NCBI GenBank assembly: GCA_963727645.1
Contig: CAVSHA010000011.1
Location: 64,233 to 128,232, forward strand
Reading direction: 5' to 3'
Source of the DNA: an uncultured Acidimicrobiaceae bacterium
GTDB taxonomy: Bacteria; Actinomycetota; Acidimicrobiia; Acidimicrobiales; Bog-793
Length of the DNA stretch: 64,000 nt
The stretch's first letter is position 1. Each line of letters opens with the position of its first letter. The notes beneath the pieces are model-generated. The model worked only from the letters and a program-made list of their open reading frames with translations. It was not told the DNA's origin and searched no databases. Both the position numbers and the translations under genes were made by a program. Positions 10,677-27,894 of this stretch are shown one piece after another.

Positions 10677-10892
10677 TTATGCCGCTTGAGTTTCCTTGCG
10701 GGTCGAGCTCGTGCTGCGCCTCTCGTACTCGACCGGGGTGAGATTGCCGAGCGAGCTGTGCATCCGCTGGCGGTTGTAGAAGACCTCGATGAACTCGAAG
10801 ACCGCCCGCTGAGCCAGCGAACGCGTCGGCCAGGACTGGCGGTAGATGAGCTCTTCTTTGAGCGTCGCGAACCAGCTCTCGGCCACAGCGTT
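10677..10892 (-). pseudogene. IS3 OrfB transposase, C-terminal fragment (NAVAESWF...NRQRMHSSLGNLTPVEYE)
   Basis: Contains the rve-domain C-terminal motifs, including the AVAES Glu region. It continues the frame of 14202..14891 once 10893..14201 is removed. Confidence 0.85.
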
Positions 10893-10945
10893 GGACCGCG
10901 CCGTCAACTACGCCGGATTGCGGAGCTGAACGACAGACAGTCAGG

Positions 10946-11206
10946 GTGACCCATCCCTTCCATCCATGGTCAGGCCTGGAGTTCGTGTTCATCAGCCTGC
11001 GTCGCACCTGGGGGGAGGATCGGGTGTTCTTCTTCACCGGTGGCGGCAGGCAGACGTCCCTGCCCACGGCATGGACCGATGCCGCTCAGCCAGATGTCTT
11101 CGTGGCGCTGGCGGATGGACGCTGTCCGTTCCGCATTGAGGATCTGCTCATCCTGGTGGACCTCGTGGATGGGCTTCACGCCGACCTCAGCAGCGGCGGA
11201 GTGTAA
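10946..11206 (+). CDS. LSR-element accessory protein A (86 aa), homologous to the N-terminal region of ORF 26522..26959 in LSR-E2
   Basis: Shared motifs by eye: HPFxxxxGxEF/L, SLPxAWTD, and DLLxxxxxVDxL. Confidence 0.55.
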   Translation: MTHPFHPWSGLEFVFISLRRTWGEDRVFFFTGGGRQTSLPTAWTDAAQPDVFVALADGRCPFRIEDLLILVDLVDGLHADLSSGGV

Positions 11207-11313
11207 GGAGGATTTCGCCGACTGTGACAGGACGATTATGCCGTCGACTACTGAACTGGTCCTTGTCGGTGTGAGGAATACCCATGAAATAAGCCTAAGT
11301 AACGCCTAGATGC

Positions 11314-11341
11314 TTGACACGACTTAGATTGTCGGCATAAT
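11314..11341 (+). promoter_or_regulatory. candidate sigma-70-type promoter for the LSR-E1 operon (TTGACA-N16-CATAAT)
   Basis: TTGACA at 11314-11319 and CATAAT at 11336-11341, in the only AT-rich stretch of the element, 34 bp upstream of the RBS and ATG at 11375. The -10 overlaps one arm of the inverted repeat ATTATGCCG (11235-11243 / 11333-11341). Confidence 0.45.
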
Positions 11342-11374
11342 GATACTTACATTCATGTGATTCGGGAGGTCGCC

Positions 11375-11851
11375 ATGGCGAAAGGCAGGGAGGATCCGAA
11401 GGTGGGGGCACTGCGTGCCGAGCGAAGCTTGAACCCCCACCCGGAATCGGTCACCGACGGCCGCTTTGCGGCCTCGGACTTCTTCGACGCCAGAGATCTG
11501 GTCCAGGTCAAGTACGAGATGGTTCGCCGGGTCCGAGTCGAGGGCGACGCCGTGAGTCGCACTGCCTCCGCCTTCGGCCTGTCCCGCCCCACGTTCTACG
11601 AGGCGGCCGCTGCGCTCGATGCCGGCGGGCTGCCCGGGCTCGTTCCCGCCCGCCCCGGGCCTCGTCGTGCACACAAGCTCACCGACGAGGTGGTCGCCTT
11701 CGTGCGCGATCACCTCGAAGCCGATCCATCGGCACGGCCAGCCGATCTCGTCGAGGTCATCGCCGATCGCTTCGGGGTGAGGGTCCATCCCCGCTCGATC
11801 GAGCGGGCGCTCGCCCGGGCCCCCCACCCCAAAAGTGGAGGCTCCAAGTGA
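11375..11851 (+). CDS. helix-turn-helix DNA-binding protein (transposase-OrfA-like wHTH) of LSR-E1
   Basis: GGGAGG lies 5 nt upstream of the ATG at 11375. HTH segment SRTASAFGLSRPTFYEAAAAL, and a second wHTH-like segment LVEVIADRFGVRVHPRSIERAL. Confidence 0.65.
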   Translation: MAKGREDPKVGALRAERSLNPHPESVTDGRFAASDFFDARDLVQVKYEMVRRVRVEGDAVSRTASAFGLSRPTFYEAAAALDAGGLPGLVPARPGPRRAHKLTDEVVAFVRDHLEADPSARPADLVEVIADRFGVRVHPRSIERALARAPHPKSGGSK

Positions 11852-12107
11852 GCCGCTCGACGACCAAAGCGTGGAGCGCTACGAGATGCTGCGAGGCCAT
11901 GCGCTCGACGGAGCGGAGTCGGGCTGGCGTCTCGGGCTCGCGCTGCTCCAGCGATCCGGCATGGCAGCTTGGGCGAGAGCGTCACGAAGCATCGACACCC
12001 GAGCACCCCTCCGACCGACTCGGGCAGCTGCCCAGCCCGATGCCGACGGCGAGGCGATCGTCGCCGTGCTCACCGCCATGGCTCTGGCCTGCGTGGGAGA
12101 TCGGTGA
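11835..12107 (+). CDS. LSR-element accessory protein (90 aa)
   Basis: Its start overlaps the HTH gene stop and it ends 3 nt before the LSR start. The C-terminal EAIVAVLTAMALA resembles ERLAVVSTLARLM in the LSR-E2 ORF 26503..26715. Confidence 0.45.
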   Translation: MEAPSEPLDDQSVERYEMLRGHALDGAESGWRLGLALLQRSGMAAWARASRSIDTRAPLRPTRAAAQPDADGEAIVAVLTAMALACVGDR

Positions 12108-12110
12108 GTC

Positions 12111-14189
12111 GTGATCGCCGACACCTCCTCCAAGGTCAACTCTTCACATCTGGCGCGCACCGCTTATCTGTACGTCCGTCAGTCCACCCTGCGCCAAGTG
12201 ATCAACAACACCGAGTCCGCCACTCGCCAATATGCCCTGCGCCAACGTGCCGTCGCCCTCGGCTGGCCGGCCGAGCAGATCGTTGTCATCGACACCGACC
12301 AGGGACACTCTGGCGCGTCAGCCGCCGACCGGGAAGGCTTCCAGCGTCTCGTGGCCGAAGTCGGCATGGGCCGTGCCGGGATCGTCCTCGGCCTCGAGGT
12401 CTCGCGTCTCGCCCGGAACAATGCCGACTGGCATCGCCTGCTCGAGATCTGTGCCCTTTCTGGCACCCTCATCTGCGACGAGGACGGCCTCTACGACCCG
12501 GCTGATTTCAACGACCGCCTGCTGCTCGGCCTGAAGGGGACGATGTCGGAGGCCGAGCTCCACTTCATCCGTGCGCGCCTTCGCGGTGGTCAGCTCTCCA
12601 AAGCGCGTCGAGGCGAGCTGCCGATGGTCCCTCCGGTGGGGCTCGTCTACGATGCCGCCGCCAAGCTCGTCCTCGACCCGGACAACGGGGTGCAGCAGGC
12701 GGTCCGGCACCTGTTCGCCACCTTCGCCCGAACAGGCTCGGCACGCGCTGTCGTGCAGGCCTTCAACGAGGAAGGCCTGCAGTTCCCTGCCCGCGTCCGC
12801 AGCGGGCTTCATAAGGGCGAGCTCGCCTGGATGCCGCTGCGCCACTGGCGCGTGCTGCGGACGCTCCACAACCCACGCTATGCGGGCGCGTTCGTCTATG
12901 GCCGCCGCCGAGAGATCAGAGGACCGAACGGTCGGATCCGTCACGAGAGCGTGCCCCGGGACAAGTGGATCGCCCTCATTCAGGACTCGCATCCCGGCTA
13001 CATCACCTGGGAGCAGTTCGAGACCAACCAGGCACTGCTTGCTCAGAACGCCCAGGCGCATGGTGCCGACAGGGTGGCGGGCCCTGCACGCGAAGGTCCT
13101 GCGCTCCTTCAGGGCCTTGTTGTCTGTGGTCGGTGTGGGCGGCGGATGACCGTCCGATACCACGAGCGCCGTGACGGTCCAGTGCCCGAATACAACTGCA
13201 TCGGTGAGGCCATCCAAGCCGGCGCCCGCCGCTGCCTCACCATTCCCGGTGCAGGAGTCGACGAGGCGATCAGCCAACTCCTGCTCGATACACTCACACC
13301 GCTCGCACTCGAGGTCGCCCTCAAGGTGCAGTGCGAACTGGAAGCTCGCTCCGATGAAGCCGACGGGCTGAGGAAAACTCACGTCGAGCGGGCGCGCCAT
13401 CGCGCCGAGCTGGCAAGGCGTCGCTACTTGTCGGTCGATCCTGACAACCGGCTCGTGGCCGACACCCTCGAAGCCGACTGGAACGACTCGCTGCGCCAGC
13501 TCCAAAGCGCGCAGGACGATTACGAACGAGCAAGCGCTGCAACAAGAGGCGCTCTCAGTGAAGAACACAAGGCTCGCATTCGCCAACTTGCGACCGACTT
13601 CCCCATGTTGTGGTCGAACCCGGCCACTCCGCAGCGCGAACGCAAGCGAATGATCCGCCTCCTCATCGAGGACGTCACTCTCGCCAAGGCAGGCATGATC
13701 CACGTTCACGTTCGCTTCCGCGGCGGGCAGACGACGAGTCTCGTCCTGCCGCCGCCACTACCGGCCTGGAAGATCCGCCAGACCGATCCGGAGGCCATCG
13801 CCCTTCTCGGACACCTGCTCGACGAGCACACCGACCTCGAGGTGGCGACGGCGCTCAACGCCGCGGGCCATCATTCCGGACTCGGAAAGCCCTTCACCGC
13901 CCGCATCGTGCTCGAGCTACGCCGCAGCAACCATCTCCCGAGCCACGCCGAGCGCCTGCGTGCTCGCGGGCTTCTCAACCTCGGCGAGGTGGCACAGCGG
14001 CTCTCTGTCAGCACGGCGACTGTCAAGAAGTGGGACCAGGCCGGTCTGCTCGAGAGCTTCAGAGCGAACGACAAGAACGAACGGCTCTACGCTCCGCCGA
14101 GGCCCGATGACCCGAGACTCGTGAAATGCATGGGAAGCAAGCTCGAACGTCGAGTTCTGATCGAATCGACGACAGGAGGTGCAGTGTGA
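12111..14189 (+). CDS. large serine recombinase (LSR1, 692 aa)
   Basis: Resolvase catalytic N-domain (AYLYVRQSTLRQ with the Ser nucleophile, LEVSRLARNNADWHRLLE). Recombinase domain and zinc ribbon (CGRCGRRMTVRY...EYNC). Coiled-coil region and a C-terminal MerR/excisionase-like HTH (LNLGEVAQRLSVSTATVKKW). Confidence 0.92.
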   Translation: MIADTSSKVNSSHLARTAYLYVRQSTLRQVINNTESATRQYALRQRAVALGWPAEQIVVIDTDQGHSGASAADREGFQRLVAEVGMGRAGIVLGLEVSRLARNNADWHRLLEICALSGTLICDEDGLYDPADFNDRLLLGLKGTMSEAELHFIRARLRGGQLSKARRGELPMVPPVGLVYDAAAKLVLDPDNGVQQAVRHLFATFARTGSARAVVQAFNEEGLQFPARVRSGLHKGELAWMPLRHWRVLRTLHNPRYAGAFVYGRRREIRGPNGRIRHESVPRDKWIALIQDSHPGYITWEQFETNQALLAQNAQAHGADRVAGPAREGPALLQGLVVCGRCGRRMTVRYHERRDGPVPEYNCIGEAIQAGARRCLTIPGAGVDEAISQLLLDTLTPLALEVALKVQCELEARSDEADGLRKTHVERARHRAELARRRYLSVDPDNRLVADTLEADWNDSLRQLQSAQDDYERASAATRGALSEEHKARIRQLATDFPMLWSNPATPQRERKRMIRLLIEDVTLAKAGMIHVHVRFRGGQTTSLVLPPPLPAWKIRQTDPEAIALLGHLLDEHTDLEVATALNAAGHHSGLGKPFTARIVLELRRSNHLPSHAERLRARGLLNLGEVAQRLSVSTATVKKWDQAGLLESFRANDKNERLYAPPRPDDPRLVKCMGSKLERRVLIESTTGGAV

Positions 14190-14201
14190 AGCCAAGCCCT
14201 T

Positions 14202-14891
14202 GTCCCAGCACTGTCGGGGTCTCGAGAGCGACTGGCGGATGCCGTTCTTTTCGAGGAGCTCCCGGAAATCACTTGATGTGTACTGCGATCCGCGGTCTGA
14301 ATGGAAGATGAGCCCAGGTTCTGGCCGGCGCAGATCGATCGCCATCTTAAGCGCGTCGCAGACGAGATCGGCCCGCATGTGCTCGGCCATGGCGAAGCCG
14401 ACGACGCGCCGGGAGGCGAAGTCGATCACGGTCGCGAGGTACAGCCAGCCCTCCCAGGTGCGCACGTAGGTGATGTCGCCGCACCAGGCCGTGTCGATCT
14501 CGCGCACGCCGACCCCGAACTCACGACAGATGAGGTCGATCGCTTTCGTCTCGGCGTCCGGATCCGGGATCGTCGTCTTCTTGAACCGGCGCCTGCAGCG
14601 CCCGACAAGACCGTGGAGTGCCATGAGACGGGCGACTCGCTTCCGGCCAGCACAGACTCCCCGGTCTTTGAGCTTGCCCGTAATCCGGGGCGCCCCATAG
14701 GTCCCACGGGAAGCCTTGTGGATCTCGGTGATCTTCTCGAACAGCTCGGCGTCGGACAACTCCCGGGCGGATGGCTCTTTCGCGGACCACTCGTAGTAGG
14801 CGGTTCGGGAGACCTCGAGCAGCCGGCACGCCATGGCGACGTTGCCGTCCTGCTCAGCCTTTTCCGCCTCGACGAACGGGTAGACGTTCAC
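14202..14891 (-). pseudogene. IS3 OrfB transposase, N-terminal part (ends ...SLSRPRQCWD)
   Basis: HTH_21/rve motifs (YGAPRITGKL, WCGDITYVRTWEGWLYLATVIDFASRRVVG, FHSDRGSQYTS). The tracked ORF 13917..14891 reads through into LSR-E1 sequence after CWD. Confidence 0.88.
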
Positions 14892-15202
14892 CGGGTCTCC
14901 TTGGCGAAAAAAGCTGTCGCGCGCCTCAAGAGGTCGCGCTCTTCGCGCAGCACCCTGTTCTCTTTCCGGAGCGCCACCAGCTCGGCGTGCTCCTCTGTCG
15001 TCAGCCCAGGACGCCGGCCCGTGTCGATCTCGGCCTGGGCGACCCAGCGGCGTACCGCCGTCTCGCCGATGCCGAGGTCACGGGCAACCTGGGCGATCGA
15101 CTTGCCGCTGGTGCGGCACAGCTCGACCACCTCGGTCTTGTACTCGTCGGAGAACGACCGTCGTGGCCGTCTCCCGTTTCCCATGATCTCCATGATGGAC
15201 AT
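14888..15202 (-). CDS. IS3 OrfA (HTH, leucine-zipper-type)
   Basis: 104 aa: RRSFSDEYKTEVVELCRTSGKSIAQVARDLGIGETAVRRWV, then LRKENRVLREERDLLRRATAFFAKE, typical of IS3 OrfA. Confidence 0.9.
   Translation of the reverse strand: MSIMEIMGNGRRPRRSFSDEYKTEVVELCRTSGKSIAQVARDLGIGETAVRRWVAQAEIDTGRRPGLTTEEHAELVALRKENRVLREERDLLRRATAFFAKETR
14906..14914 (-). promoter_or_regulatory. programmed -1 ribosomal frameshift site T TTT TTC joining OrfA to OrfB
   Basis: The minus strand reads gcT TTT TTC gcc in the orfA frame. A -1 slip gives FFRQGDPVNVYPFVE, which is the orfB frame. Confidence 0.7.
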
Positions 15203-15265
15203 CCTTTCCGGGCGATGTCGCCCGATCGTGGATGTCCGTCAAAGCGGGTCAAGCCCACGTGGACA

Positions 15266-15378
15266 GGGTTCCTACTATCCTGCCCTCATGAAAGAGGGGG
15301 GCGGGGTTCCTACTATCCTGCCCTCATGAAAGAGGGGGGCGGGGTGCCTGCTGTCCTGCGCTCATGAAAAAGGGGGGC
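15266..15378. repeat. tandem array of about 38 bp x3 carrying the hairpin CCCTCATGAAAGAGGG; a fourth copy lies at 10617..10645 on the other side of the IS3
   Basis: Units at about 15265-15302 and 15303-15340 (near identical) and 15341-15378 (diverged). CCTGCCCTCATGAAAGAGGG also occurs at 10626-10645 in the same orientation. Confidence 0.85.
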
Positions 15379-15384
15379 TGAGTC

Positions 15385-15885
15385 ATGCGTTTCTTCATTG
15401 AGGACTCGGTTGACGTTTCGTGTCCGTTCGAAATGGTGCGGCGGCGCTTTGTCGGTGACGGGACCTGGCTTGCTTCCTTTGCCACCGAAGCAGAGGGCGA
15501 AGGCGAAGCGCTTTACCTTCGCATCGGACCGTCGTGGGCGAGCGGGCGGGTCGAGAGGGAAGTCCGCGTGACGCACGGGGCACTTCGTGACCTCGGGGTC
15601 GCCGTGGTCGTGCCTGTCTCCTGGCAGTCGAGCGGACTGCCTGCGCTCTTTCCCGTGCTCGAAGGCGAGGTAGAGATCCTCCCGCTGAACACGGACCGCT
15701 GCCGTGTCTCGCTCTTTGCTTTCTACGAGCCTCCGTTCGGCCAGCTCGGAGGGCAGCTCAATCGGGCGCTACTGCACCACGTGGCCCAGTCGACAGTACG
15801 CTCCTTCCTCGCGCGTGTGGCCGAGAAGCTTGAGACCGAGAGTCGCGGGCTACGGCCGGTGGTATCCCCGTCGCGGCAGGGTTGA
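15385..15885 (+). CDS. hypothetical protein (possibly SRPBCC-fold)
   Basis: 166-aa ORF with protein-like composition. The family assignment is a guess from size and pattern only. Confidence 0.4.
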   Translation: MRFFIEDSVDVSCPFEMVRRRFVGDGTWLASFATEAEGEGEALYLRIGPSWASGRVEREVRVTHGALRDLGVAVVVPVSWQSSGLPALFPVLEGEVEILPLNTDRCRVSLFAFYEPPFGQLGGQLNRALLHHVAQSTVRSFLARVAEKLETESRGLRPVVSPSRQG

Positions 15886-15976
15886 TCGACCTGACCATTG
15901 CCGCGACGATCGATCGCGTGGCGAGCAGTCGTCACACGTCATGCTCGAGGTAGGCCCATTGCGCTCCTCGGGCCGA

Positions 15977-16327
15977 TCAGCCCTTCACGTACGACAGCTT
16001 TTCGGCGACCTTGCCGTCTCGCACCCGGAAGACATCCACTCCACGTACGTGGCCACCACTCCAGGAGTACCGCCATCGCTGCACGACTCGGTCACCGGCG
16101 GAGAAGACTTCCTCCTGCTCGAACCAGGCGTGGCTGTCGGCGAAGATGGGGCCCCAGGCGCGTCTGATCGCTTCGTGGCCGACATGGCGCATCCCGTCAG
16201 GGGCCGGTCCGGTGGAATCAAAGACACAGTCGTCGGTGACAAGAACCAAGGCGGCCTCGAGGTCGTGCGCCGCCCACGCCATGCCAAAATCCTCCACGAC
16301 GCTGAGCGCGTCCGTCACTACCTCCAA
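15977..16327 (-). CDS. SnoaL-like / NTF2-fold family protein
   Basis: 116 aa. The pattern AWAAHDLEAALVLVTDDCVFD...G..A.R..W...F...........F..GDRVV..W......G.....GVDVFRVRDGKVAEKLSYVKG is typical of SnoaL_2 proteins. Confidence 0.7.
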   Translation of the reverse strand: MEVVTDALSVVEDFGMAWAAHDLEAALVLVTDDCVFDSTGPAPDGMRHVGHEAIRRAWGPIFADSHAWFEQEEVFSAGDRVVQRWRYSWSGGHVRGVDVFRVRDGKVAEKLSYVKG

Positions 16328-16332
16328 GCCTC

Positions 16333-16686
16333 TTACTTGGCGTAACTACTGGCGCCGAACCAGTCGACGGTCACGACCGGCTCATCGCCCACGACCCATG
16401 CGTCGTGGCCGCTGGGAAGGCAGGTGACATCTCCGGGCCCTGCGACGAACTCGCTGCCGTCGTCCATGTGGATCGCGAGGCGCCCGCTCACGTGGTACTG
16501 GAAGTGGGGAGCGAGACAGCTCTCGGTGCCGGCAATGGGCTTCACATCGTTGGACCAGCGCCATCCCGGCGCGAAGACGAGGCGCCCCACTTCACCGCCG
16601 CCGATTCTCACGATCTCCGCCCTGCCGTTCGGGAATTCGCGTACCTCGTCGGCCTTCTCGAAGCTGCGATGCTCGGTCTGTTGCAT
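16333..16686 (-). CDS. cupin domain protein
   Basis: 117 aa with the cupin motifs HFQYHVSGRLAIHMDDGSEFVAGPGDVTCLPSGHDAWVVG. Confidence 0.75.
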   Translation of the reverse strand: MQQTEHRSFEKADEVREFPNGRAEIVRIGGGEVGRLVFAPGWRWSNDVKPIAGTESCLAPHFQYHVSGRLAIHMDDGSEFVAGPGDVTCLPSGHDAWVVGDEPVVTVDWFGASSYAK

Positions 16687-16733
16687 ATTCGAGCCCCCCT
16701 TTATGCGCTCGCGTTGACCTTACCCAGTTAGAG

Positions 16734-16751
16734 TTACCTACTAGTAAGTAA
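16734..16751. promoter_or_regulatory. candidate TetR operator: 18-bp near-perfect palindrome TTACCTACTAGTAAGTAA
   Basis: Located in the cupin/TetR divergent intergenic region, ending 1 nt before the TetR ATG (16753). 16 of 18 positions are self-complementary. Confidence 0.5.
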
Positions 16752-16752
16752 A

Positions 16753-17376
16753 ATGTCAAGAGGCTTCGAGGGCGGAGGTAAGGTGGCAGTCCGAAGCGGA
16801 ACCAGTGACACGAGCACCGCCTCGCGGATCCTCGATGTCGGGGAGCGCCTAGTCCAAACGCGCGGCTACAACGCTTTCAGCTATGCCGACGTCGCGGCCG
16901 AGCTTGATGTGACCAAGGCTGCGCTCCACTACCACTTCCCAGGCAAAGCGGAGCTCGGCGAAGCGCTCCTCAGGCGTTACGTGGCGCGTTTCGCTGACGC
17001 GTTGACCACGATTGACGCGGAAGTTGTGGATGCTCCGCGAAAGATCGCCTCCTACGCCGAGTTGTACGCAGATGTGCTGCAGCGCGGGCGGATGTGCCTG
17101 TGCGGGATGATGGCTGCCGAGTTCGAAACCCTTCCCGAGCCAATGCGGGCGCTTGTCGTCGGGTTCTTCGACGACAACGAGATCTGGCTGTCCAAGGTGC
17201 TGGAACAAGGGCGCCGAGACGGATCACTCACGTTCCCCGGCTCGACGAGGCAAGCCGCACGTTTCGCGATCGCGGCCCTGGAAGGCTCCATGCTCGTCGC
17301 CCGTCCTTTTGGCGGTGTCATGCGATTCCGCAAAGCCGTGAGCAGCTTGGTTGCTGGCCTGAGAACCCATGTGTAA
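16753..17376 (+). CDS. TetR/AcrR family transcriptional regulator
   Basis: HTH RILDVGERLVQTRGYNAFSYADVAAELDVTKAALHYHFPGKAELGEALL, with a helical C-terminal domain. Confidence 0.88.
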   Translation: MSRGFEGGGKVAVRSGTSDTSTASRILDVGERLVQTRGYNAFSYADVAAELDVTKAALHYHFPGKAELGEALLRRYVARFADALTTIDAEVVDAPRKIASYAELYADVLQRGRMCLCGMMAAEFETLPEPMRALVVGFFDDNEIWLSKVLEQGRRDGSLTFPGSTRQAARFAIAALEGSMLVARPFGGVMRFRKAVSSLVAGLRTHV

Positions 17377-17454
17377 GGCAGCGCTCCCGTCCAGACTGGC
17401 CACGCTGCCGGGAGCCTGGACGGCGAACAGCGGTTCGCTGACCAGGGAGAAGCT

Positions 17455-17477
17455 AGTGCCCGGAGCGGGACTTGAAC
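17455..17477. repeat. distal att site of the island (copy of the tRNA-Leu 3' end)
   Basis: Identical 23-mer to 29448-29470. There is no tRNA body next to it. Confidence 0.85.
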
Positions 17478-17594
17478 TCCGACCAAGCCCATCCTGGCTT
17501 ATCCCTCCAAATGACGTTGTGGCTGCTCAGTGGTTGTTTCCGGCAGCTGTCATACCGCTTTGGGAGGGTCCGTCCCGGTCGATCCCGGCGCGTT

Positions 17595-17613
17595 TGTGAT
17601 CATTTTGTGATCA
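17595..17613. repeat. two TGTGATCA motifs (candidate integrase arm-type sites) at the distal island end
   Basis: TGTGATCAttttGTGATCA at 17595-17613. The same octamer occurs 3 times at 29342-29378. Confidence 0.5.
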
Positions 17614-17663
17614 CGAAGCCCCGCTCTGGCGATCCTGGGGGACCAGAACGCCGAGCCACGATC

Positions 17664-17693
17664 TCGTATATACGACGCCTACATCGTATATAC
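17664..17693. promoter_or_regulatory. candidate VapB operator: TCGTATATAC x2 spaced 20 bp start-to-start
   Basis: Two identical 10-mers, each containing the palindrome GTATATAC, lie immediately upstream of the vapB GTG at 17701. Confidence 0.5.
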
Positions 17694-17700
17694 TGAAAGA

Positions 17701-17895
17701 GTGGCAAAGCACCTAGTCGATCTGGATGAAGAGGCACTCAGCGCAGCACAGGCGGAACTGGGGACGACAACGATCAAAGACACCGTCAACAAGGCTCTCG
17801 AGCGATCTACCTCTAGTCGGCATCGCCGAGTGGCCTCAGCCCTTGACATCCTGGCCGAGGCTGACCTCGAGGACCGAGCCGAAGCGTGGCGCTGA
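17701..17895 (+). CDS. vapB: type II antitoxin (VapB-like)
   Basis: 64 aa. The sequence MAKHLVDLDEEALSAAQAELGTTTIKDTVNKAL is typical of actinobacterial VapB. It overlaps the downstream PIN gene by 10 nt. Confidence 0.8.
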   Translation: MAKHLVDLDEEALSAAQAELGTTTIKDTVNKALERSTSSRHRRVASALDILAEADLEDRAEAWR

Positions 17896-20899: not shown

Positions 20900-21098
20900 T
20901 CACGAGCGGGTGCCTCTCTATGAAGAGGGGCCGGTTGTCAAGATCGATTGTTGTTCTTAGCGGACACCTCCTTCGTTGCGGTGCCCGGGCTGACTAGGCC
21001 GGGCGGTGGGAGGTTGGTTCTCATCTCTCTATCGCCTCCTCGAGGGAGGAAAAGGTCTGGTGGGAGAACTCCGGCTGGTCCATCTCAAACGAGGGTCG

Positions 21099-22142
21099 TC
21101 AAGTGACCAGAGGCGCGGCGGGGGACCTTGCCGGAGCGAACATCGAGCCCGTCTGGAGCATGTGCCAGATGGCCTCGGTGAGCTTGCGGGCCACTTCGAT
21201 ACGCGCGATCTTGGCGCCGCGTTGGCGACCGAGGCGGGCCTTGGTCCTGTCGTAGTGGTCCTTGTAGATGGGATGACTCGACGCGTGCACAGCAGCCTCG
21301 ATGAGTGACCAGCGCAGGTACTTCGGCCCGTTCTTCGTGATCGGACCGCGGAAGTCCTTGCCGCCGGACTGGTAGACGCGCGGGCAAAGCCCGGTGTAGC
21401 CCATCAACTTCTTCGGAGACGAGAAGCGGGAGATGTCTCCGATCTCCGAGGCGATCGTGAACCCGAGGACCCAGGCGATGCCAGGAGCGGACTGCAGCAG
21501 GCTCACGTAGGGATGGTCCGCTCCGAGTGATTGCAGCTCTTTCTCGCACGCGTCAATCTCAGAGTCAAGGTCGTCGATCATCAAGAGCGCCGTGGCGATG
21601 TTCTTCGTCCAGGGATCGGGGAGCTCGAGACGTCCGAGCAGCTCGCGGCCAGACTTTCCGAACAGGTCCGAGACCGGGCAGGGCTTGCCGAAAGCGAGCA
21701 GGCTCGAATGGATACGGTTCTTCAACATCACCCGGTGGCGCACAAGATGGAGGTGGAAGCGGGCCCGCTCCCGTTCGGCGCGGATCTCCGGGTCCGGGAG
21801 CCATATCGCCGGCACGAGATCACGCCGGGAGAGCTCAGCTAGGACCCAGGCGTCGATCTTGTCGGTCTTGCAGGCAAGCGGTGCGAGACCCTTCACCTTC
21901 TGCGCGTCGGCGATCTCGACGTCCCATCCCATGAGCTCGAGACTGTCGTGGACAAAGCGGGCACCGTTCATCGATTCGATGGCCGCGTTCACCGGTCCGC
22001 CGAGGACCGCCACCTCCTTGGCGAGGTGACGGAGCCCGTCGAGATCGGGAGGAGCTTGGGTGACGGCGAGCTTTGTGCCAGCCTCGTTGAGCACGCAGAC
22101 GTCGAGTCGCTTTCTGCTGAGGTCAAGTCCAAGATGCAACAT
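21099..22142 (-). CDS. IS110-family transposase (IS110-A, apparently intact)
   Basis: DEDD N-domain (LGLDLSRKRLDVCV, AIESMNGARF, KTDKIDAWVLAEL). C-terminal Transposase_20 motifs (LQSAPGIAWVLGFTIASEIGDISRF, GLCPRVYQSGG, ITKNGPKYLRW). The start is taken at MLHLGLD; the tracked start is 22184. Confidence 0.88.
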   Translation of the reverse strand: MLHLGLDLSRKRLDVCVLNEAGTKLAVTQAPPDLDGLRHLAKEVAVLGGPVNAAIESMNGARFVHDSLELMGWDVEIADAQKVKGLAPLACKTDKIDAWVLAELSRRDLVPAIWLPDPEIRAERERARFHLHLVRHRVMLKNRIHSSLLAFGKPCPVSDLFGKSGRELLGRLELPDPWTKNIATALLMIDDLDSEIDACEKELQSLGADHPYVSLLQSAPGIAWVLGFTIASEIGDISRFSSPKKLMGYTGLCPRVYQSGGKDFRGPITKNGPKYLRWSLIEAAVHASSHPIYKDHYDRTKARLGRQRGAKIARIEVARKLTEAIWHMLQTGSMFAPARSPAAPLVT

Positions 22143-22600
22143 GGTGTGGGGGCCTCCTTGGTGTTGGTTCCGACGAGAACCCAATGTTCACGCCGGGGAG
22201 GTCCCTCTTCATGGCATTCAAACGTCTCCGTCGGCGGCGCACAGCGGCTCCAAACACGAGGATCAAGGCCACCCCTAAGAGGTTCGGGTGCCGATCGCAA
22301 AGTGCTGTTACCGGGCGAGTTCTTGGGTGTCCCATATCGCCAGCTAGGTCGCGCACATATCGGTGCCCGCGAATTGGTTTAGCACCAGCGCCGAGTTGAT
22401 GTCATGAAGAAGCGCTGCGCCGCTTCTGCGTGACCGGGCTCCTCGTGCGAGCACGGGCGCCGAGGGAAGCGAGGGCAGCCGTGGCCGCTCGATCCGTGTC
22501 CTCTCCGGCGAACCACCGGAGTCCCTCTCGTGGCCAGGAACCGAATGTGCAAGGCACACTCGGGGTCTCCAAACCAACCCGGAAACGGAAGGGGACTCCG

Positions 22601-22786
22601 GTGGAACACCAAAGACAGTATGTGGGAATAGACCTGCACCGTCGGCGCTCGGTGATCGTGCGGATCACCGAGGACGGTGAGGTGCTCGAGACCGTGCGCG
22701 TCGTCAACGACCCGCTCAAGCTCGCTCTCGCCATGGCGGAAGCCGGTGATGATCCCGAGGTGGCACTTGAGGCTACGTATGGCTGG
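22601..22786 (+). pseudogene. IS110-family transposase B, exon 1 (ends ...EATYGW), interrupted by a group II intron
   Basis: GTG at 22601 follows GGAAGGGG. YVGIDLHRRRSVIVRITEDGEVLE and EAT are DEDD motifs. The frame breaks at the GTGCG that begins the intron. Confidence 0.8.
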
Positions 22787-23386
22787 GTGCGCCACGAGGC
22801 GCCACATGACCGGGTGGGGGGAAGAGCCCCACCTGTGGCCTGTCGCAGCAGGCCGCTGAAGCTGGAGGCAGCCTGACCTCGGAGACGAGAGGAAGGGCGG
22901 GAGCAGCCTCTACAACGCCGGGACGAACTGGCACTACCAGACAGCTCGGGCTCGGCCAGCAAGACGGAGAGGTGTACGTATGCAGGAACCAGTGGTGGAA
23001 CCCCCTCAAGAAGTCAGGACCGGCTGGGAATCTGGTGGATGGCCGGGATGGCAGTGCGCTGCGACTCCCTACAACCGGGAGGGACAGCCTCGACGCCGAG
23101 GGTGCGTCGGGGGCCACGGTGACGTGCTGCGGGATAGCCGTGGACAGGCCTGCAGGGGAAAAGCTGGGCACCGATCCCGTCAACCGGTCTGTGGTGAACG
23201 TGGGAACCGTCCTCTCGGCGCCAACCTGCCGGCCAACCGGGTCGGCAGCGGCAAGGCACGTCGTCTGCTGATGCCGAGAGGGCGGGGCGGAGGGTCCGTA
23301 GTAGTCCGAGGTCGGGAAAGCCGGCCACATGGCGAAGGGACCCAGCGAGCTTGCAGTAGTTGGACTGGAAGATCAGGAGGACGCTG

Positions 23387-23928
23387 GTGAACACCGACGC
23401 TCCGTGGCCCGATCTCTATGAGGCCGAGCAACGGGTACTGAAGATCCAGACGAAGCTGCACCAATGGGCTGCCGACGACCCTCGTCGTCGGTTCGATGAC
23501 CTGTTCAACCTTGTCTCCGATCCTGCGTTCCTCATCGTGGCGTGGGATCGGGTGCGGAGAAATCGAGGGGCACGGTCCAAAGGAGTCGATGGAGTCGCAC
23601 CAAGCTCCATCGTCCTTGGCAGAGAGGCGTTTCTCTCCGGGCTACGAGATGATCTCAAGGCCCGGCGGTTCGTCCCTTTGCCGGTGCGGGAGAAGCTCAT
23701 CCCGAAGAAATCGGGGAAGCTTCGCGGGCTCGGCATCCCAACCGCTCGGGATCGCTGCGTCCAGGCCAGCATGAAGCTGGTCCTCGAGCCGATTTTCGAA
23801 GCGGACTTCAAGCCGTGCAGTTACGGCTTCCGACCGAGGAGACGGGCGCAGGACGCCATCGAGGAGATCTTCTTCTACACGACCCATGGTTACCACTGGG
23901 TTTTGGAGGGAGACATCAAATCATGCTT
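23387..23928 (+). pseudogene. group II intron reverse transcriptase/maturase (IEP), N-terminal part (RT0-RT3, ends ...LEGDIKSC)
   Basis: AGGAGG lies 6 nt before the GTG at 23387. The motifs KGVDGVAPSSI, PVREKLIPKKSGKLRGLGIPTARDRCVQASMKLVLEPIFE, SYGFRPRRRAQDAI and VLEGDIKSC are present. After 23928 the tracked 1055-aa ORF is antisense LSR sequence. Confidence 0.88.
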
Positions 23929-23935
23929 GGAGGCC

Positions 23936-26170
23936 TCAACACACTGCGCCTTCCACTTGTTGCTGCTCGTCGAAGAGACTGGGTTGCGGTCGTTCCACCT
24001 TGATTCTCAAGCCCTTTCTCCTTCCAGCACGCACGTGGACGGCCTCGAGCTCTCCGCGCTTTACACGCTGCAACACCGTCTGGCGGCTGACGCCGAGCGC
24101 CCGGGTGGCTTCGAGCATGGCCAACCAGCCGGGTGGTGCCTCCTCGACGAAGCGGGAGCGGAGGTCGTCTGTGACGCGGATGCGCCACGGTGCCCCGGGG
24201 GTGAGCTGCTCACCGGCGATGAAGCCGTCCCCAAGCCAGCGGTGCACCGTGGATGGCACGACGCCGAGGATCTTTGCCGCCTCGGCGATCGTCACGAGCT
24301 CGCCCTTCTTCTCGTCGAGGGACGAGTCGTGGCGGGCGATCTTCCACGAGGTGCGCAGGCTGGAGACGCGACCGCGGGTGAAGCGCTCGCCTGTTGCGGT
24401 GCGCCGTCCCTGGCGGTTCAAGATGCCCACGATCGTCGCGTCGTCGTAGTGGACAGCGAGCCTGCGCATGAGATCGACCGTGTCCTCGTCAGTGCGGATC
24501 GGTGGGGAGTAGGCACGGGGGAGATCGACGACAAGCTCGGTGGTGGCACCGCCCCGCCACCTGAGCACGAGCACGGCTCGGTGCTCCTCGCGTTCCACCT
24601 CGACGACGACCTCTTCGACCAGAGTCCGCAACAGCTCCTTGCGGTCCTTGTCGGTGGTGCTCGGAGCGGACCACACCCGGCCCACATCGAGCGAGAGGCG
24701 CGAGATGGCTGCTATTTCCTCTGGCCCGAGCACCTTTGGGCGAGCGGCCTCACGCCGGACGAGCTCGGCTTCGGCGTCACGAAGAGCAAGGAGCGCCCGC
24801 TCCCACTCGGCCTCGAGCCCTCGAGCAACGAGGCGGTTGTCCGGGTCGACGGCGAGATAGCGCCGTTCGGCTCTGCTCGCCTGGAAACGGTGCCGTTCGA
24901 CCTCTTTGCGCCATTGCGCCAAGGCGGCGTCGCGGTCGTCCTCGAGCGCTTGTGCCGCAACGAGCGAGGCCTCGATGCCCGCCGGGGCGATAGCCGAGAG
25001 GAACGCTGTCTGAATGGCTTGGTCGATCTGGACCCCGCCGACCGACAGGTGCGTCACGCCCCGCCCCGAGACGAGCTCCCGGCCGGCGCAGTGATAGCCA
25101 GGGCTCGAGTTCGAGCCCTGGTAGTGCACGGCGAGACGCCGCCCGCAGTGCCCGCAGGAAGCGATCCCCTGCAAGAGCGCGGAGCCCTCCCGGAGCGCAC
25201 CGCCCGGCTCATGGGCCTTCGGGCGGATGTTGGCACCGATGCGGACCTGGTTGGCTTCGAAGGTTGCCCAGTCGATGTAGCCGGGGTGATGATCCACGAT
25301 CAGGACCGCCCACCCGTCGCGTCCGACGCGACGCTTTTGGACGCGGGCAGCACCCGCTTTGTCAACGACACGCTCGTGTCGCGTGCGCCCATAGACATAG
25401 GCGCCAGCGTAGGAAGGATGCGTGAGCACGCGGTGGATCGCGTTGTAGGTGGGTGCAACCCACCTGAGCTCGGGCCAGGTGTTCCCCGCCGTTTGCTGCA
25501 ACGGGAACGAGAGCCCCTCGCCGAGCAGCCACAGCCACACCGCCCGCACGGAGCCGGACTCTGCGAATTGGCTGAATACGGCCGCTATCACGCCACGCAC
25601 CGCCTCGTCGGGGTGGAGGAGCACCTCACCCTCCCCCTCCCCCCATACGAGCCCGACCGGAAGGCCCCGGCGGAGCTCACCTCGTGCCGCCTTGTTGCGG
25701 ATCCCGCCCTCGAGCCGGGCACGGAGCACATGCAGCTCGGCCTCGCTCATCGTGCCCTTCAAGCCCAACACGAGCCGGTCGTTGAAGCTCGCCGGGTCAT
25801 AGAGCCCGTCCGCGTCGCCGATGAGCGTGTCGGTCAGCCCGCAGAGATCGAGGAGCCGATACCAGTCGGCGTTGTTGCGCGCGAGACGGCTGACCTCGAG
25901 GCCGAGCACGATGCCGACGTGGCCGAGCGCGACCTCGGCGGTGAGGTGGGAAAAGCCACCCCGGGTGACGGACCCCGATCCGGAGAGCCCGAGGTCTTCG
26001 TCGATCACGACGACCGAAGAGGCGGGCCAGCCGAGCTCGACCGCCCGGCCCTTCAGCGCGTACTGGCGATCGGTGGACTCGGTGTTGTGCTCGAGCTGGC
26101 TCTTTGTCGACTGGCGGACATAGACCAGTGCCTGGCGCCGGAGATGGGACTGGCCGGGCCGTTCACTCAT
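23936..26170 (-). CDS. large serine recombinase (LSR2, 744 aa from the ATG at 26170)
   Basis: ALVYVRQSTKSQ (Ser nucleophile), LEVSRLARNNADWYRLLD, zinc ribbon CGHCGRRLAVHY...GYHC, a coiled-coil, and two C-terminal MerR/excisionase-like HTHs (LVTIAEAAKILGVVPSTVHRWL; MLEATRALGVSRQTVLQRV). Clearly homologous to LSR1. Confidence 0.92.
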   Translation of the reverse strand: MSERPGQSHLRRQALVYVRQSTKSQLEHNTESTDRQYALKGRAVELGWPASSVVVIDEDLGLSGSGSVTRGGFSHLTAEVALGHVGIVLGLEVSRLARNNADWYRLLDLCGLTDTLIGDADGLYDPASFNDRLVLGLKGTMSEAELHVLRARLEGGIRNKAARGELRRGLPVGLVWGEGEGEVLLHPDEAVRGVIAAVFSQFAESGSVRAVWLWLLGEGLSFPLQQTAGNTWPELRWVAPTYNAIHRVLTHPSYAGAYVYGRTRHERVVDKAGAARVQKRRVGRDGWAVLIVDHHPGYIDWATFEANQVRIGANIRPKAHEPGGALREGSALLQGIASCGHCGRRLAVHYQGSNSSPGYHCAGRELVSGRGVTHLSVGGVQIDQAIQTAFLSAIAPAGIEASLVAAQALEDDRDAALAQWRKEVERHRFQASRAERRYLAVDPDNRLVARGLEAEWERALLALRDAEAELVRREAARPKVLGPEEIAAISRLSLDVGRVWSAPSTTDKDRKELLRTLVEEVVVEVEREEHRAVLVLRWRGGATTELVVDLPRAYSPPIRTDEDTVDLMRRLAVHYDDATIVGILNRQGRRTATGERFTRGRVSSLRTSWKIARHDSSLDEKKGELVTIAEAAKILGVVPSTVHRWLGDGFIAGEQLTPGAPWRIRVTDDLRSRFVEEAPPGWLAMLEATRALGVSRQTVLQRVKRGELEAVHVRAGRRKGLRIKVERPQPSLFDEQQQVEGAVC

Positions 26171-26525
26171 CGCCGGACCGCTCTTTCGAAGATAGGGAAC
26201 GCTTCGCGCCACCTTCGTGCTGGAGCGGTGTGTCCTCTCCCACCCTGGCACGGCGGCGCCGATAGGCGGCCTGGCGACAGCCCGGCGAACAAAAGCGAGG
26301 CTTCGAGCCCGTCCGGGACCGAAGGAGCACGCCGTCGAGATCGGTGCGCACGAAGCGGCCACAGGGCGGGCAGACAAAGCCGACCGGTGACACCTCGGTG
26401 GCAGACGAAGAAGCGTCACGCAATGTGTCCTCATCCACCGAGCGACTCACTGGAGTTCTGCGTGACGCGTGCGGTGCCCCAGCAAGAGCGGGGCTCGTTC
26501 CCTCACTCCGTCGTGGCTCGGTCAT
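26163..26525 (-). CDS. small zinc-ribbon protein (CPPC...FCSPGCRQAAYRRRR) of LSR-E2
   Basis: 120-aa ORF with four Cys in CxxC/CxxxC spacing and a basic tail. Its stop overlaps the LSR2 ATG by 8 nt. The N-terminal half is low-complexity, so the true start may be internal. Confidence 0.5.
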   Translation of the reverse strand: MTEPRRSEGTSPALAGAPHASRRTPVSRSVDEDTLRDASSSATEVSPVGFVCPPCGRFVRTDLDGVLLRSRTGSKPRFCSPGCRQAAYRRRRARVGEDTPLQHEGGAKRSLSSKERSGDE

Positions 26526-26715
26526 GACGTCCCTCCTTCTTCTCGATCGACTTCGCCATCAGGCGTGCGAGCGTGCTCACGACGGCGAGGCGCTCGGTGG
26601 GTGCCAGCTCCTCCCAGAGAGGACCGACCGTCACCTCGTCCTCGAACAGCTCCAGGCTCAACTGCACGGGCAACCTCCTCGTCTGGTCTGTGCCGATCCT
26701 GGCGAGGGTTGTCAT
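26503..26715 (-). CDS. LSR-element accessory protein (about 70 aa from an internal Met of ORF 26503..26817)
   Basis: The C-terminal LWEELAPTERLAVVSTLARLMAKSI resembles the tail of the LSR-E1 orf90. The start choice is uncertain. Confidence 0.35.
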   Translation of the reverse strand: MTTLARIGTDQTRRLPVQLSLELFEDEVTVGPLWEELAPTERLAVVSTLARLMAKSIEKKEGRHDRATTE

Positions 26716-26959
26716 CGAGGTGGTGGACCAGGCGATCCACGACAGCACGGGCGTGCAGAAGGTCCGACAGCGTTCCCAAGGTGCCCGATTCACCTTGGCG
26801 CTCGGGGATCTGTTCAAGGTCGGTCCACGCAGCTGGGATCAGGCTCTTCGAACCATCCGGCAGGACGAGGCACAGCTCGAGGCTGTTGTGCCGGTGCATC
26901 GCGCTCAATACAGAGAGCTCCTGGCCCTCGAAGGGATGGTGGGGTCGCACGATGCGCAC
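26522..26959 (-). CDS. LSR-element accessory protein A homologue; only the first ~85 aa look genuine
   Basis: MRIVRPHHPFEGQELSVLS...DGSKSLIPAAWTD...LSDLLHARAVVDRL aligns with LSR-E1 orf86. The remaining ~60 aa are R/G/P-rich and overlap the next ORF. Confidence 0.5.
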   Translation of the reverse strand: MRIVRPHHPFEGQELSVLSAMHRHNSLELCLVLPDGSKSLIPAAWTDLEQIPERQGESGTLGTLSDLLHARAVVDRLVHHLDDNPRQDRHRPDEEVARAVEPGAVRGRGDGRSSLGGAGTHRAPRRREHARTPDGEVDREEGGTS

Positions 26960-27003
26960 CTTTTCCGGAAGGTCCCGGACGTGGGCAGTGTGTCGCCTAC
27001 TCC

Positions 27004-27894
27004 TTCGACGAAATCTCCCACGTCGGCCTCATGGACCGATTGCGGAGAAGAGTTGGAGACAAGCGCGTCCTGGGACTGGTGAAGGCGTTCCTCAAAGCTG
27101 GTGTCCTCGGTAAGGACCAGGTGATGAGGGACACCGTTACCGGCACTCCGCAGGGTGGCATCCTCTCACCGCTCCTGGCGAATATCGCCCTGTCGGTGCT
27201 CGATGAGCACTTCATGGACGAATGGGAGTCCTGGGGCGGCACCTACGAACGCAGGCGAAGGCGTGTCAAGGGCCTGGCGAATTACCGAATCATCAGGTAT
27301 GCGGACGACTTTCTCGTCCTGGTCCACGGCACCGAAGAGCATGCCCAAGCACTGCGGTCAGAGGTTGCAACGGTGCTTTTGCCGATGGGCTTACGCCTGT
27401 CGGAGGAAAAGACACTGGTCACCCACGTCGACGAGGGCTTCGACTTTCTCGGCTTCCACATCCAGCGGAAGCGCCAAGAAGGAACGAATCGGCGCACGAT
27501 GTACACCTACCCGTCGAAGAACGCTCTCGCGGCGATCAAGGCGAAGGTGCGTGCGCTCACGCAGGGCAACACGAACCAGACCCTGGCCAACCTGCTGCAG
27601 CGGCTGAATCCGGTGCTGCGGGGCTGGACCAATTACTTCCGGCACGGCGTGTCGGCGAGGACCTTCAGCTACCTGAACGCCTTCTCTTGGCGGCGGGTGG
27701 TCAACTGGCTTCGCCATAAGCACCCTCGTGCCTCTTGGAGTTGGCTCCGTCGCCATCATCTCCCGAAGTGGCGGCCGACGGACGGCGAGGTGACCCTTTT
27801 CAACCCGGCGACGGTGTCGATCACGAGGTATCGCTACCGGGGGACAAGGATCGCAACGCCTTGGGCAGGGCCGAACGAGAGGGACGCCGCATAG
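27004..27894 (+). pseudogene. group II intron IEP, C-terminal part (FDEISH..., RT4-7 with YADD, and the X/maturase domain)
   Basis: FDEISHVGLMDRLRRRVGDKRVLGLVKAFLKAGV, TPQGGILSPLLANIAL, RYADDFLVL, GFDFLGFH and LNPVLRGWTNYFRH are present. The tracked ORF 26344..27894 upstream of 27004 is antisense LSR-E2 sequence. Confidence 0.9.

Follow-up and report, generated by a model that had tools for sequence, protein, structure and literature searches.

A family of minimal serine recombinase elements that probably uses catalytic-motif DNA of other mobile elements as attachment sites

We analyzed a 64,000-nucleotide stretch of DNA (the window) from an uncultured Acidimicrobiaceae bacterium (GenBank assembly GCA_963727645.1, contig CAVSHA010000011.1, positions 64,233 to 128,232) and focus here on two small integrated elements, each encoding a large serine recombinase (LSR): E1 (window positions 10893 to 14201, plus strand, 3309 bp) with LSR1, and E2 (23929 to 27005, minus strand, 3077 bp) with LSR2, both lengths counting one copy of a 2-bp core. 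E1 splits a transposase gene of an IS3-family insertion sequence (IS), and E2 splits the reverse transcriptase (RT) gene of a group II intron. Very probably, E1 and E2 are members of a large family of minimal autonomous integrative LSR elements of about 2.75 to 3.8 kb that use the catalytic-motif DNA of other mobile elements' enzymes as their target attachment site (attB). This reading draws on the anatomy and junctions of the elements, the classes and register of their targets, identical copies at multiple sites, an exact empty site, and carriage on plasmids. We also lean, more cautiously, toward a broader picture: a hyperparasitic LSR superfamily with thousands of members in at least ten bacterial phyla and one archaeal metagenome-assembled genome (MAG), whose attachment sites have radiated along catalytic motifs (the DDE Glu of four to five IS families, RT motif A, and the tyrosine-recombinase Tyr) and whose LSRs read a loose AA-N9-GA signature, not one fixed 40-bp site.

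Insertion sites of E1, E2, and their relatives

Both insertions could be read to the base. The region is GC-rich (about 60 to 70%), and we therefore trusted only long open reading frames (ORFs) and their Pfam matches. At E1, the left junction reads GGCCACAGCG-TT-GGACCGCGCCGTCAACTAC (core at 10891 to 10892) and the right junction GCAGTGTGAAGCCAAGCCC-TT-GTCCCAGCACTG (core at 14200 to 14201). When E1 is removed and one core kept, the joined flanks restore an open IS3 OrfB (rve, rve_3, HTH_21) that reads RPRQCWDN|AVAESWFATLKEE: its N-terminal part (14202 to 14891, minus strand) runs up to CWD, the core supplies the Asn, and its C-terminal part (10633 to 10892, minus strand) starts at N|AVAESWFATLKEE and includes the catalytic Glu with a Lys seven residues on, the assignments resting on the joined-flank translation and Pfam. 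The crossover thus falls in the Asn codon, four codons upstream of the Glu. In IS3 and retroviral integrases, a Glu followed seven residues later by Lys or Arg is the third residue of the DDE triad. E2 has the core AA in element orientation at both junctions (23927 to 23928 and 27004 to 27005; TT on the plus strand), which read GCAGTGTGTTGAGGCCTCC-AA-flank and flank-AA-GGAGTAGGCGACACACTGC in that orientation. Its removal with one core kept restores an open RVT_1 and GIIM protein, EGDIKSC|FDEISH, in which the N-terminal RT part (23360 to 23928, plus strand) ends in EGDIKSC plus the TT of a Phe codon and the C-terminal RT and maturase part (27006 to 27894, plus strand) resumes at (F)DEISH; intron domain V/VI lies downstream at 27915 to 28014 (Rfam). 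Each operon is antisense to the gene that it splits. These readings bear out the first-pass annotation of this DNA, whose listed sequence features were all present to the base: it had placed the targets just before AVAES of an IS3 transposase and just after EGDI of an RT (joined flanks CWDN|AVAES and EGDIKSC|FDEISH), the central dinucleotide as TT in E1 and AA in E2, and both operons antisense to the disrupted genes. Within the 64-kb window we found no second copy of E1, E2, or their targets.

The same annotation had proposed that conserved catalytic-core sequences serve as attB sites and had suggested a survey of relatives, which supports the idea. We sampled 80 loci with LSR1 relatives (one genome per species scanned, chosen by protein similarity alone, 52 to 97% identical to LSR1) and ten E2-clade loci with LSR2 relatives (69 to 93% identical), 80 + 10 loci out of thousands. 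The surveyed LSR1 relatives come from Actinomycetota, Chloroflexota, Gemmatimonadota, Acidobacteriota, Planctomycetota, Verrucomicrobiota, Desulfobacterota, Pseudomonadota, and Bacteroidota, along with one archaeal MAG. For each locus we joined the flanks at the core and translated the strand opposite to the LSR gene in the frame in which the core AA fills the first two positions of a codon, checking frames by Pfam; at one-sided loci the right flank alone was read, and target classes were assigned by clustering and Pfam on representatives. Among the 72 resolvable LSR1-relative loci, 69 lie in transposase or recombinase genes, so that insertion mostly in ordinary chromosomal genes is not what we see. 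The targets are rve-type genes at 32 of the 80 loci (two of them Mu/Tn7-like), IS21-type genes (rve plus Mu-transpos_C_2) at 25, DDE_Tnp_ISL3 genes at seven, DDE_Tnp_IS66 genes at two, Phage_integrase genes at two (L075 and L076), and one Transposase_mut (IS256) gene (L017); three targets are unclear (L047, L051, and L069), and the other eight loci fall on truncated contigs that gave no target class. The restored frame is open at nearly all loci, and in 24 it stays open for at least 200 codons upstream and at least 60 downstream, which indicates that intact genes were hit.

The position of the crossover within these genes is constant across transposase families. IS3-type targets read GDxYDN|AxAES, other rve targets RAPRAN|AxAER and SPWQN|PxVER, IS21 IstA targets KPKDK|PRVER, AHEK|GGVEG, and DPDRK|AKAEV, ISL3 targets LSN|GLIES, and IS66 targets PPDN|NGSER. 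An Asn or Lys at the crossover codon with a Glu four codons on was found in 49 of the 59 loci with both flanks, and the ten exceptions mostly have decayed or undecipherable left flanks. When 47 distinct attB sites are compared, near-invariance outside the core is confined to TC at −12/−11 (44 to 46 of 47), which corresponds to the GA of the Glu codon; GTC, an Asp codon, is frequent at +1 to +3. The constant feature is therefore a DNA register: the AA of an Asn or Lys codon, nine bases, and the GA of a Glu codon.

Two further sets of relatives sit at catalytic motifs of other enzymes. In all ten E2-clade relatives, the flank on the LSR side encodes (E/D)xDIxxC/F of an RT, next to RT motif A, and the joined flanks restore DIxxC|FD(E/R)I(S/D)H in E2 and in the five of ten relatives whose other end was located. 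Cores in this clade are AA/AA except at L081, whose left end is ambiguous by one base; element sizes are 2.75 to 3.27 kb; and RVT_1 or GIIM genes are annotated beside seven of the ten loci. At the two Phage_integrase loci, L075 (the archaeal MAG) and L076, the core is AC and the insertion is in sense orientation, with the flanks reading GHSDVRTT|SVYLH and GHARLTT|TQMYL, about four codons before the catalytic Tyr. In a similarity tree, the LSRs that target ISL3, IS66, tyrosine-recombinase, and RT genes cluster coherently by target, and those that target rve and IS21 genes are intermixed.

Recombinases, conserved ends, and mobility

LSR1 (12111 to 14189, plus strand, 692 aa) and LSR2 (23936 to about 26170, minus strand, 744 aa from MSERPGQ) are 44% identical over 653 aa. 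LSR2 relatives are 739 to 756 aa long, and a longer ATG-initiated ORF reaching 26434 is probably not used. Both proteins carry the Resolvase domain (PF00239; E = 2.5e-20 for LSR1 and 4.8e-17 for LSR2) together with Recombinase and zinc-ribbon domains (PF07508 and PF13408, Zn_ribbon_recom); Y-V-R-Q-S is invariant in the LSR alignment, with S25 as the nucleophilic serine, and the LSR aligns to SPbeta integrase residues 62 to 384 and matches the phrog_95 integrase family (E = 2e-52 for LSR1). Beyond the zinc ribbon, each LSR has an extension of about 200 residues that ends in a MerR/excisionase-type helix-turn-helix (HTH), at residues ∼620 to 661 of LSR1 (window 13980 to 14100; Pfam MerR) and in two stretches at ∼625 to 722 of LSR2 (HTH_17, excisionase-like). 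Such a C-terminal HTH is an unusual addition for serine integrases.

Both elements have 19-2-19 ends, as first annotated. In E1 the left terminal arm GGACCGCGCCGTCAACTAC (10893 to 10911, plus strand), the P′ half-site, follows the family consensus TT-N10-GTCRACTRC, and the right terminal arm GCAGTGTGAAGCCAAGCCC (14181 to 14199, plus strand), the P half-site, follows GGTGCAGTRTGA-N10-TT. In E2 the arm on the LSR side is GCAGTGTGTTGAGGCCTCC on the minus strand (23929 to 23947), and the arm at the other end is GCAGTGTGTCGCCTACTCC on the plus strand (26985 to 27003). Both LSR stop codons lie inside a GCAGTGTG arm: GCAGTGTGA at 14181 to 14189 for LSR1, and GCAGTGTGTTGA on the minus strand, ending at 23936, for LSR2. 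The arms match as inverted repeats at 10 of 19 positions in E1 and 14 of 19 in E2, and in 55 distinct relatives the mean match is 8.6 of 19, versus 4.9 for shuffled arms. Agreement is concentrated at the outer G.A.T, whose positions 1, 3, and 5 match in 93 to 98% of relatives, and at the innermost two bases. Repeat searches within E1 and E2 returned only the chance level expected of GC-rich DNA, the short imperfect arms having escaped the repeat tool. The right-end pattern GGTGCAGTRTGA-N10-TT is present in 68 of 80 loci, and in most loci the left-end consensus stands 55 nt before the start of the DUF5372 gene described below. Inside the LSR1 gene (window 13324 to 13337), 13 of 14 bases agree with the right-end motif AGGTGCAGTGTGAA, which may be due to chance. 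Among the 62 genome loci with both junctions, the core is TT at both in 55 and a matching AC/AC (L075 and L076) or GA/GA (L077) in three; these other cores, matching at both junctions, support a 2-bp crossover. L063, with TT at one junction and AC at the other, points to a mis-called end or a hybrid.

Several observations point to recent mobility. In one long-read MAG, three copies of an element are identical over 3418 bp. One of them (L025) sits in a diverged copy of the IS21-type target: two of the loci align at 93.6% over 4.4 kb, and since the 100%-identical element makes up part of this block, the flanks are much less alike. Another MAG contains two identical elements with different flanks (L068 and L071). 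E1 and the surveyed relative L001 share 96.3% DNA identity over the whole element and an identical element attachment site (attP, the arms joined around the core), and their targets are an IS3 gene and an IS21-like gene, respectively. Two of the three copies in the long-read MAG, L024 (2334 to 8930) and L057 (2368 to 8930), share a 6.6-kb block, made up of an IS21-type element and the 3418-bp LSR element, that is 99.4% identical and surrounded by unrelated DNA; this reflects either independent hits on identical IS copies or an interrupted IS moved in trans with the LSR element as cargo.

Finished plasmids of cultured strains carry the same elements. On pNGR234a of Sinorhizobium fredii NGR234, the genes y4bD (DUF5372), y4bC (HTH), y4bB (small ORF), and y4bA (recombinase, 52% identical to LSR1) form a 3320-bp element with the same end motifs and a TT core, and this copy splits an ISNCY-annotated rve transposase at PQAK|GRVERANQTL. 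A copy of the same element on pNGR234b splits IS21 IstA at PYRARTK|GKDER, and elements of this type occur at 3 + 6 places on the two NGR234 plasmids. When the flanks of the pNGR234a copy are joined, they align without interruption (800 of 800 nt, 97.4% identity) to intact ISNCY-annotated transposase genes on other Sinorhizobium plasmids, and 161 records cover at least 80% of this joined-flank query; such an exact empty site confirms the element boundaries. In PLSDB, 454 plasmids, mostly rhizobial and 271 of them conjugative, carry relatives at a total of 879 places. The copies on plasmids of Rhodococcus opacus, Burkholderia, Paraburkholderia, Aromatoleum, and Mesorhizobium interrupt IS3- or IS21-type genes.

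The family is abundant in sequence databases. At E ≤ 1e-20, relatives of LSR1 number more than 8000, the top 120 sharing at least 73% identity with it, and DUF5372 comprises 1853 clusters at 50% identity. Contigs bearing LSR1 relatives are mostly 3.2 to 3.7 kb, the length of the element, and those bearing LSR2 relatives are 2.8 to 3.3 kb, as expected of a repeat that breaks assemblies at its ends. No relative turned up among 50,697 phage records, and none of the surveyed loci was embedded in a prophage, an arrangement that the first-pass annotation had named as contrary to its proposal. We rejected a phage origin on the same grounds, given elements of about 3 kb with four genes, none of them phage-like.

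Gene content, proposed mechanism, and alternative explanations

Gene content is simple and largely conserved. A DUF5372 gene, the hallmark accessory gene of the family, and the LSR gene stand at opposite ends on one strand in E1, E2, and their relatives. In E1 the DUF5372 gene (10946 to 11206, plus strand, 86 aa; PF17342, E = 3.6e-25) is followed by an HTH protein gene (11357 to 11851, plus strand; HTH_32/HTH_28, resembling the N terminus of IS630/IS481 transposases), a small ORF of 88 aa that overlaps both neighbors (11848 to 12114, plus strand), and LSR1, and this order holds across the E1 clade. The DUF5372 gene was found in 64 of the 66 LSR1-related loci with enough upstream DNA and the HTH gene in 78 of 82 E1-family loci. 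The small ORF is conserved in position and poorly in sequence: it resembles only that of L001, and annotated plasmid copies have an ORF of 54 to 95 aa in its place. Element length among LSR1 relatives is mostly 3.3 to 3.6 kb, reaching about 3.95 kb. A predicted sigma-70-like promoter, TTGACA-N16-CATAAT (11314 to 11341, plus strand, 11/12 match), precedes the HTH-orf88-LSR operon and is the sole such site within E1; 33 of 70 relatives have a match of at least 9/12 at the corresponding place, often TTGACA-N16-GGCATAAT, and the −10 region GGCATAAT is kept across phyla. The promoter spacer contains a small palindrome, CGACTTAGATTGTCG (window 11320 to 11335), a possible operator for the E1 HTH protein.

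In the E2 clade a zinc-ribbon-like protein takes the place of the HTH protein. E2 comprises a DUF5372-like gene (26522 to 26959, minus strand, 145-aa ORF; PF17342, E = 2.4e-6), with similar sequence in all ten E2-clade loci, then orf120 (26163 to 26525, minus strand), which encodes a putative zinc-ribbon protein (CPPC...FCSPGC) kept in four E2-clade loci, and LSR2. The first-pass annotation had recognized the homologous LSRs and the homologous small ORF at the opposite extreme, which proves to be DUF5372 in both elements. Its account of the middle modules holds for the HTH protein of E1 and is plausible for the zinc ribbon of E2, since orf120 has the cysteine pattern and no Pfam match.

The surroundings of E2 and of its relatives show further layering. 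Window 22430 to 29532 is nested three deep, with an IS110-family gene (DEDD_Tnp_IS110) split by the group II intron that carries E2. The remnant of the IS110 gene continues as an open frame into a tyrosine integrase ORF (27904 to 29346), which adjoins a tRNA gene (29450 to 29532, minus strand) as at the edge of a tRNA-integrated island, and a seemingly intact IS110-family gene (DEDD_Tnp_IS110 plus Transposase_20; 21099 to 22184, minus strand) lies just upstream of the nested cluster. L082 (1 to 3039 and 6473 to 8746) and L088 (3231 to 5507) each have a second LSR gene of the same type tail-to-tail with the first, and at L082 three tandem Phage_integrase genes, like a recombinase-in-trio element, adjoin the split RT.

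From this anatomy and the known mechanism of serine integrases, we propose the following cycle. The LSR would excise the element as a circle whose joined arms around the 2-bp core form attP, which would then recombine with a short attB through the same enzyme. An LSR dimer would bind each of attP and attB, all four strands would be cut at the core, the subunits would rotate, and the ends would be rejoined, a non-palindromic core setting orientation. In the attB of the E1 clade, the core TT would correspond on the coding strand to the AA of an Asn or Lys codon, with the DDE Glu of IS3/IS481-, IS21-, ISL3-, and IS66-type transposases encoded four codons further on. In that of the E2 clade, the core would supply the TT of the Phe codon within motif A of the group II intron RT, and a third clade, with core AC, would use tyrosine-recombinase genes about four codons ahead of the catalytic Tyr. 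Insertion would split the gene and deprive the carrier element of its own enzyme, and conservative excision would restore the target gene exactly. Sites of this kind are presumably present in multiple copies in almost any genome and plasmid, free of cost to the host, and on DNA that travels; the choice may thus fall on the least changeable DNA of the most abundant and most shared genes, which the host can dispense with and which plasmids carry. The directionality factor is probably encoded by one of the three accessory genes (DUF5372, HTH protein, or small ORF). As no terminator follows the LSR gene, DUF5372 would lie downstream of the LSR operon in a circle, and its expression could depend on whether the element is integrated or circular.

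A number of observations weigh against this reading. The LSRs of E1 and L001 are 98% identical, yet only about half of the bases agree between their attB sites, so that recognition is loose or something else helps to choose the site. L017 lies in the non-catalytic N-terminal part of an IS256 transposase (Pfam positions 9 to 91 of 379), at LTK|RLVERA; the same DNA register is kept there despite the non-catalytic site, and such a look-alike suggests that catalytic-site targeting may be a by-product of targeting the most conserved DNA. L047, L051, and L069 have no recognizable mobile-element gene at the insertion, and at L051, on a Desulfopila MAG contig, the flanks do not form one gene. L085 and L086 in the E2 clade have RT on one side only. 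The survey loci come mostly from MAGs, where chimeras occur. The DUF5372 structure gave little: the AlphaFold2 model has a predicted local distance difference test score of 69 and a predicted template modeling score of 0.36, Foldseek found no match below E = 0.3 in the PDB, and resemblances to chromo- or SH3-like folds were not significant. Finally, the attP circle junction was not found in metagenome contigs searched with two degenerate patterns, one per clade, a result that may reflect assembly behavior. At L051 itself, the junctions (∼4719 and ∼8096) have the C-terminal two-thirds of citrate synthase (Pfam 123 to 357) on one side and unrelated DNA on the other, possibly through rearrangement between element copies, off-target insertion, or a MAG chimera.

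The loose agreement among attB sites, which share few bases beyond the core, and the use of different gene families by the 98%-identical recombinases of E1 and L001 would also fit a promiscuous transposase like TnpX or TndX, with the enrichment in transposase genes arising later because only insertions in dispensable mobile DNA would survive selection. We regard this as unlikely: selection cannot explain a fixed register, kept in 49 of 59 loci across four to five transposase families and at one RT codon in the E2 clade; the surveyed loci include no insertions elsewhere in the target genes or in intergenic DNA; and the DUF4368 domain of the multi-targeting LSR clade is absent. Two further possibilities concern who benefits. 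The elements might be reversible switches of the carrier's enzyme gene, in the manner of the skin element and sigK, retained because control of transposition or retrohoming benefits the IS, the intron, or the host. Since LSR recombination is conservative, excision would restore the frame exactly, and both the antisense operon and the internal promoter with its possible operator are compatible with such a role; yet one element lineage moves among unrelated IS families and phyla, its multiple copies and the empty sites in sister plasmids are the behavior of an independent selfish element, and the excision product was not seen in metagenome contigs, which makes a switch improbable in our view. 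A host-beneficial weapon, spreading because it knocks out transposases, RTs, and integrases, would likewise account for insertions that inactivate the enzyme at its catalytic motif. However, the elements contain no defense-type genes and are themselves multi-copy and plasmid-borne, only a minority of a genome's IS copies would be hit, and inactivation is equally well explained as a side effect of site choice; we consider this highly improbable.

The two insertions could also be old vertical relics or assembly artifacts without family behavior, as the single copy of each element in the window and the missing circle might suggest. The survey refutes the relic reading: there are thousands of close relatives, mostly on element-length contigs; cultured strains carry copies on finished plasmids; the pNGR234a copy has an exact empty site elsewhere; and the 100%-identical 3418-bp copies in different IS copies, with ends kept across phyla, rule out vertical relics lacking conserved ends, so that we give this explanation almost no weight. 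We therefore retain the reading of an autonomous family that targets the catalytic-motif DNA of other mobile elements.

Significance and relation to known systems

If this reading is correct, these elements add a new layer to mobile-element ecology, in which small elements live in and disable the enzymes of ISs, group II introns, and integrase-bearing elements, a mobile-element lifestyle for which our literature searches found no description. The family is common on the IS-rich conjugative plasmids of rhizobia and actinomycetes and may account for many "pseudogenized" transposases and "IS islands." Near-identical LSRs with different attB sites in a fixed register are a natural experiment on how serine integrases read DNA, and would constitute a natural LSR set of graded, evolvable specificity; dozens of matched attP/attB pairs with the 2-bp cores TT, AA, AC, and GA are available for recombinase tools, and DUF5372 gains a testable role as a directionality or accessory factor. 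The family may have been missed for practical reasons. TIGER rejects island calls whose flanks lie in an IS (PMC7192596), which would hide these elements, and annotation as "recombinase family protein" and "DUF5372" is a further reason.

The nearest precedent is the y4bA-D element, which has the same gene set and order as E1 and also sits inside the genes of other mobile elements. The y4bA-y4bD genes (and y4pH-K) of pNGR234a are probably NGRIS-4. In 1997, Perret et al. reportedly described NGRIS-4 of NGR234 as about 3.3 kb long, with all nine copies inside other insertion sequences, a description that the y4bA-D element fits with its 3 + 6 places on the two plasmids; they are said to have treated it as an ordinary IS, with no serine-recombinase mechanism, attP/attB geometry, codon-precise DDE target, or RT- and tyrosine-recombinase-targeting relatives. 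Our literature searches, whose reach did not extend to the 1997 NGR234 paper, returned no mention of DUF5372, nor of y4bA or NGRIS-4 in this sense, and no account of serine recombinases that target transposase genes or catalytic motifs. The first-pass annotation's suggestion of an undescribed lifestyle appears to stand for the mechanism and the catalytic-motif targeting and needs qualifying for the element itself, a copy of which was already annotated on pNGR234a: the family and its preference for insertion sequences had been glimpsed before, and the recombinase mechanism, the codon-precise register, and the RT and tyrosine-recombinase clades appear to be undescribed.

Other LSR elements resemble E1 and E2 in part. 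The phiRv1 element of Mycobacterium tuberculosis (LSR Rv1586c) integrates in the REP13E12 repeat, with several attB copies per genome and a small recombination directionality factor nearby; it is about 10 kb with phage-like genes, targets one repeat family of one species complex, and is not known to carry DUF5372. It is thus likewise an LSR element with its attB inside a repeated, multi-copy genetic element, whereas E1 and E2 are about 3 kb, target catalytic motifs across phyla, and carry DUF5372, and LSR1 lacks matches in phage records. Tn4451/Tn4453 (TnpX) and Tn5397 (TndX) resemble E1 and E2 in that they are not phages, depend on an LSR for movement, and have a 2-bp core and several target sites per genome, and a circular intermediate is part of their cycle; unlike E1 and E2, they carry resistance or conjugation cargo and are not reported to target mobile-element enzyme genes. 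In a large LSR survey, the multi-targeting clade has DUF4368 in 63% of members, and mobile-element enzyme genes are not reported as targets (PMC10083194); DUF4368 gave no hit at E ≤ 0.01 in LSR1 or LSR2.

Two other groups offer partial parallels. IS607 shares with E1 and E2 its IS size, a serine recombinase, and a MerR-like HTH, and LSR2 weakly matches transpos_IS607 (residues 687 to 722). However, the IS607 enzyme TnpA has about 190 residues, carries its HTH at the N terminus, lacks the Recombinase and zinc-ribbon domains, and shows little target specificity. LSR1 and LSR2, at 692 and 744 aa, carry the HTH at the C terminus and use precise sites. We rejected IS607 membership, as NF033518 scores 18 bits against a cutoff of 110, both LSRs have Recombinase and zinc-ribbon domains, and there is no TnpB. 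Finally, integrative mobilizable elements (IMEs) target the origin of transfer (oriT) of integrative conjugative elements (PMC7563843), and helper-embedded phage-inducible chromosomal islands (PICIs) target prophage late genes (PMC10111431). As in E1, E2, and their relatives, an integrase lineage there repeatedly hits a conserved site inside another mobile element; the IMEs and PICIs differ in using mostly tyrosine integrases, in depending on their carrier for transfer, and in targeting the transfer or late genes of a single element type.

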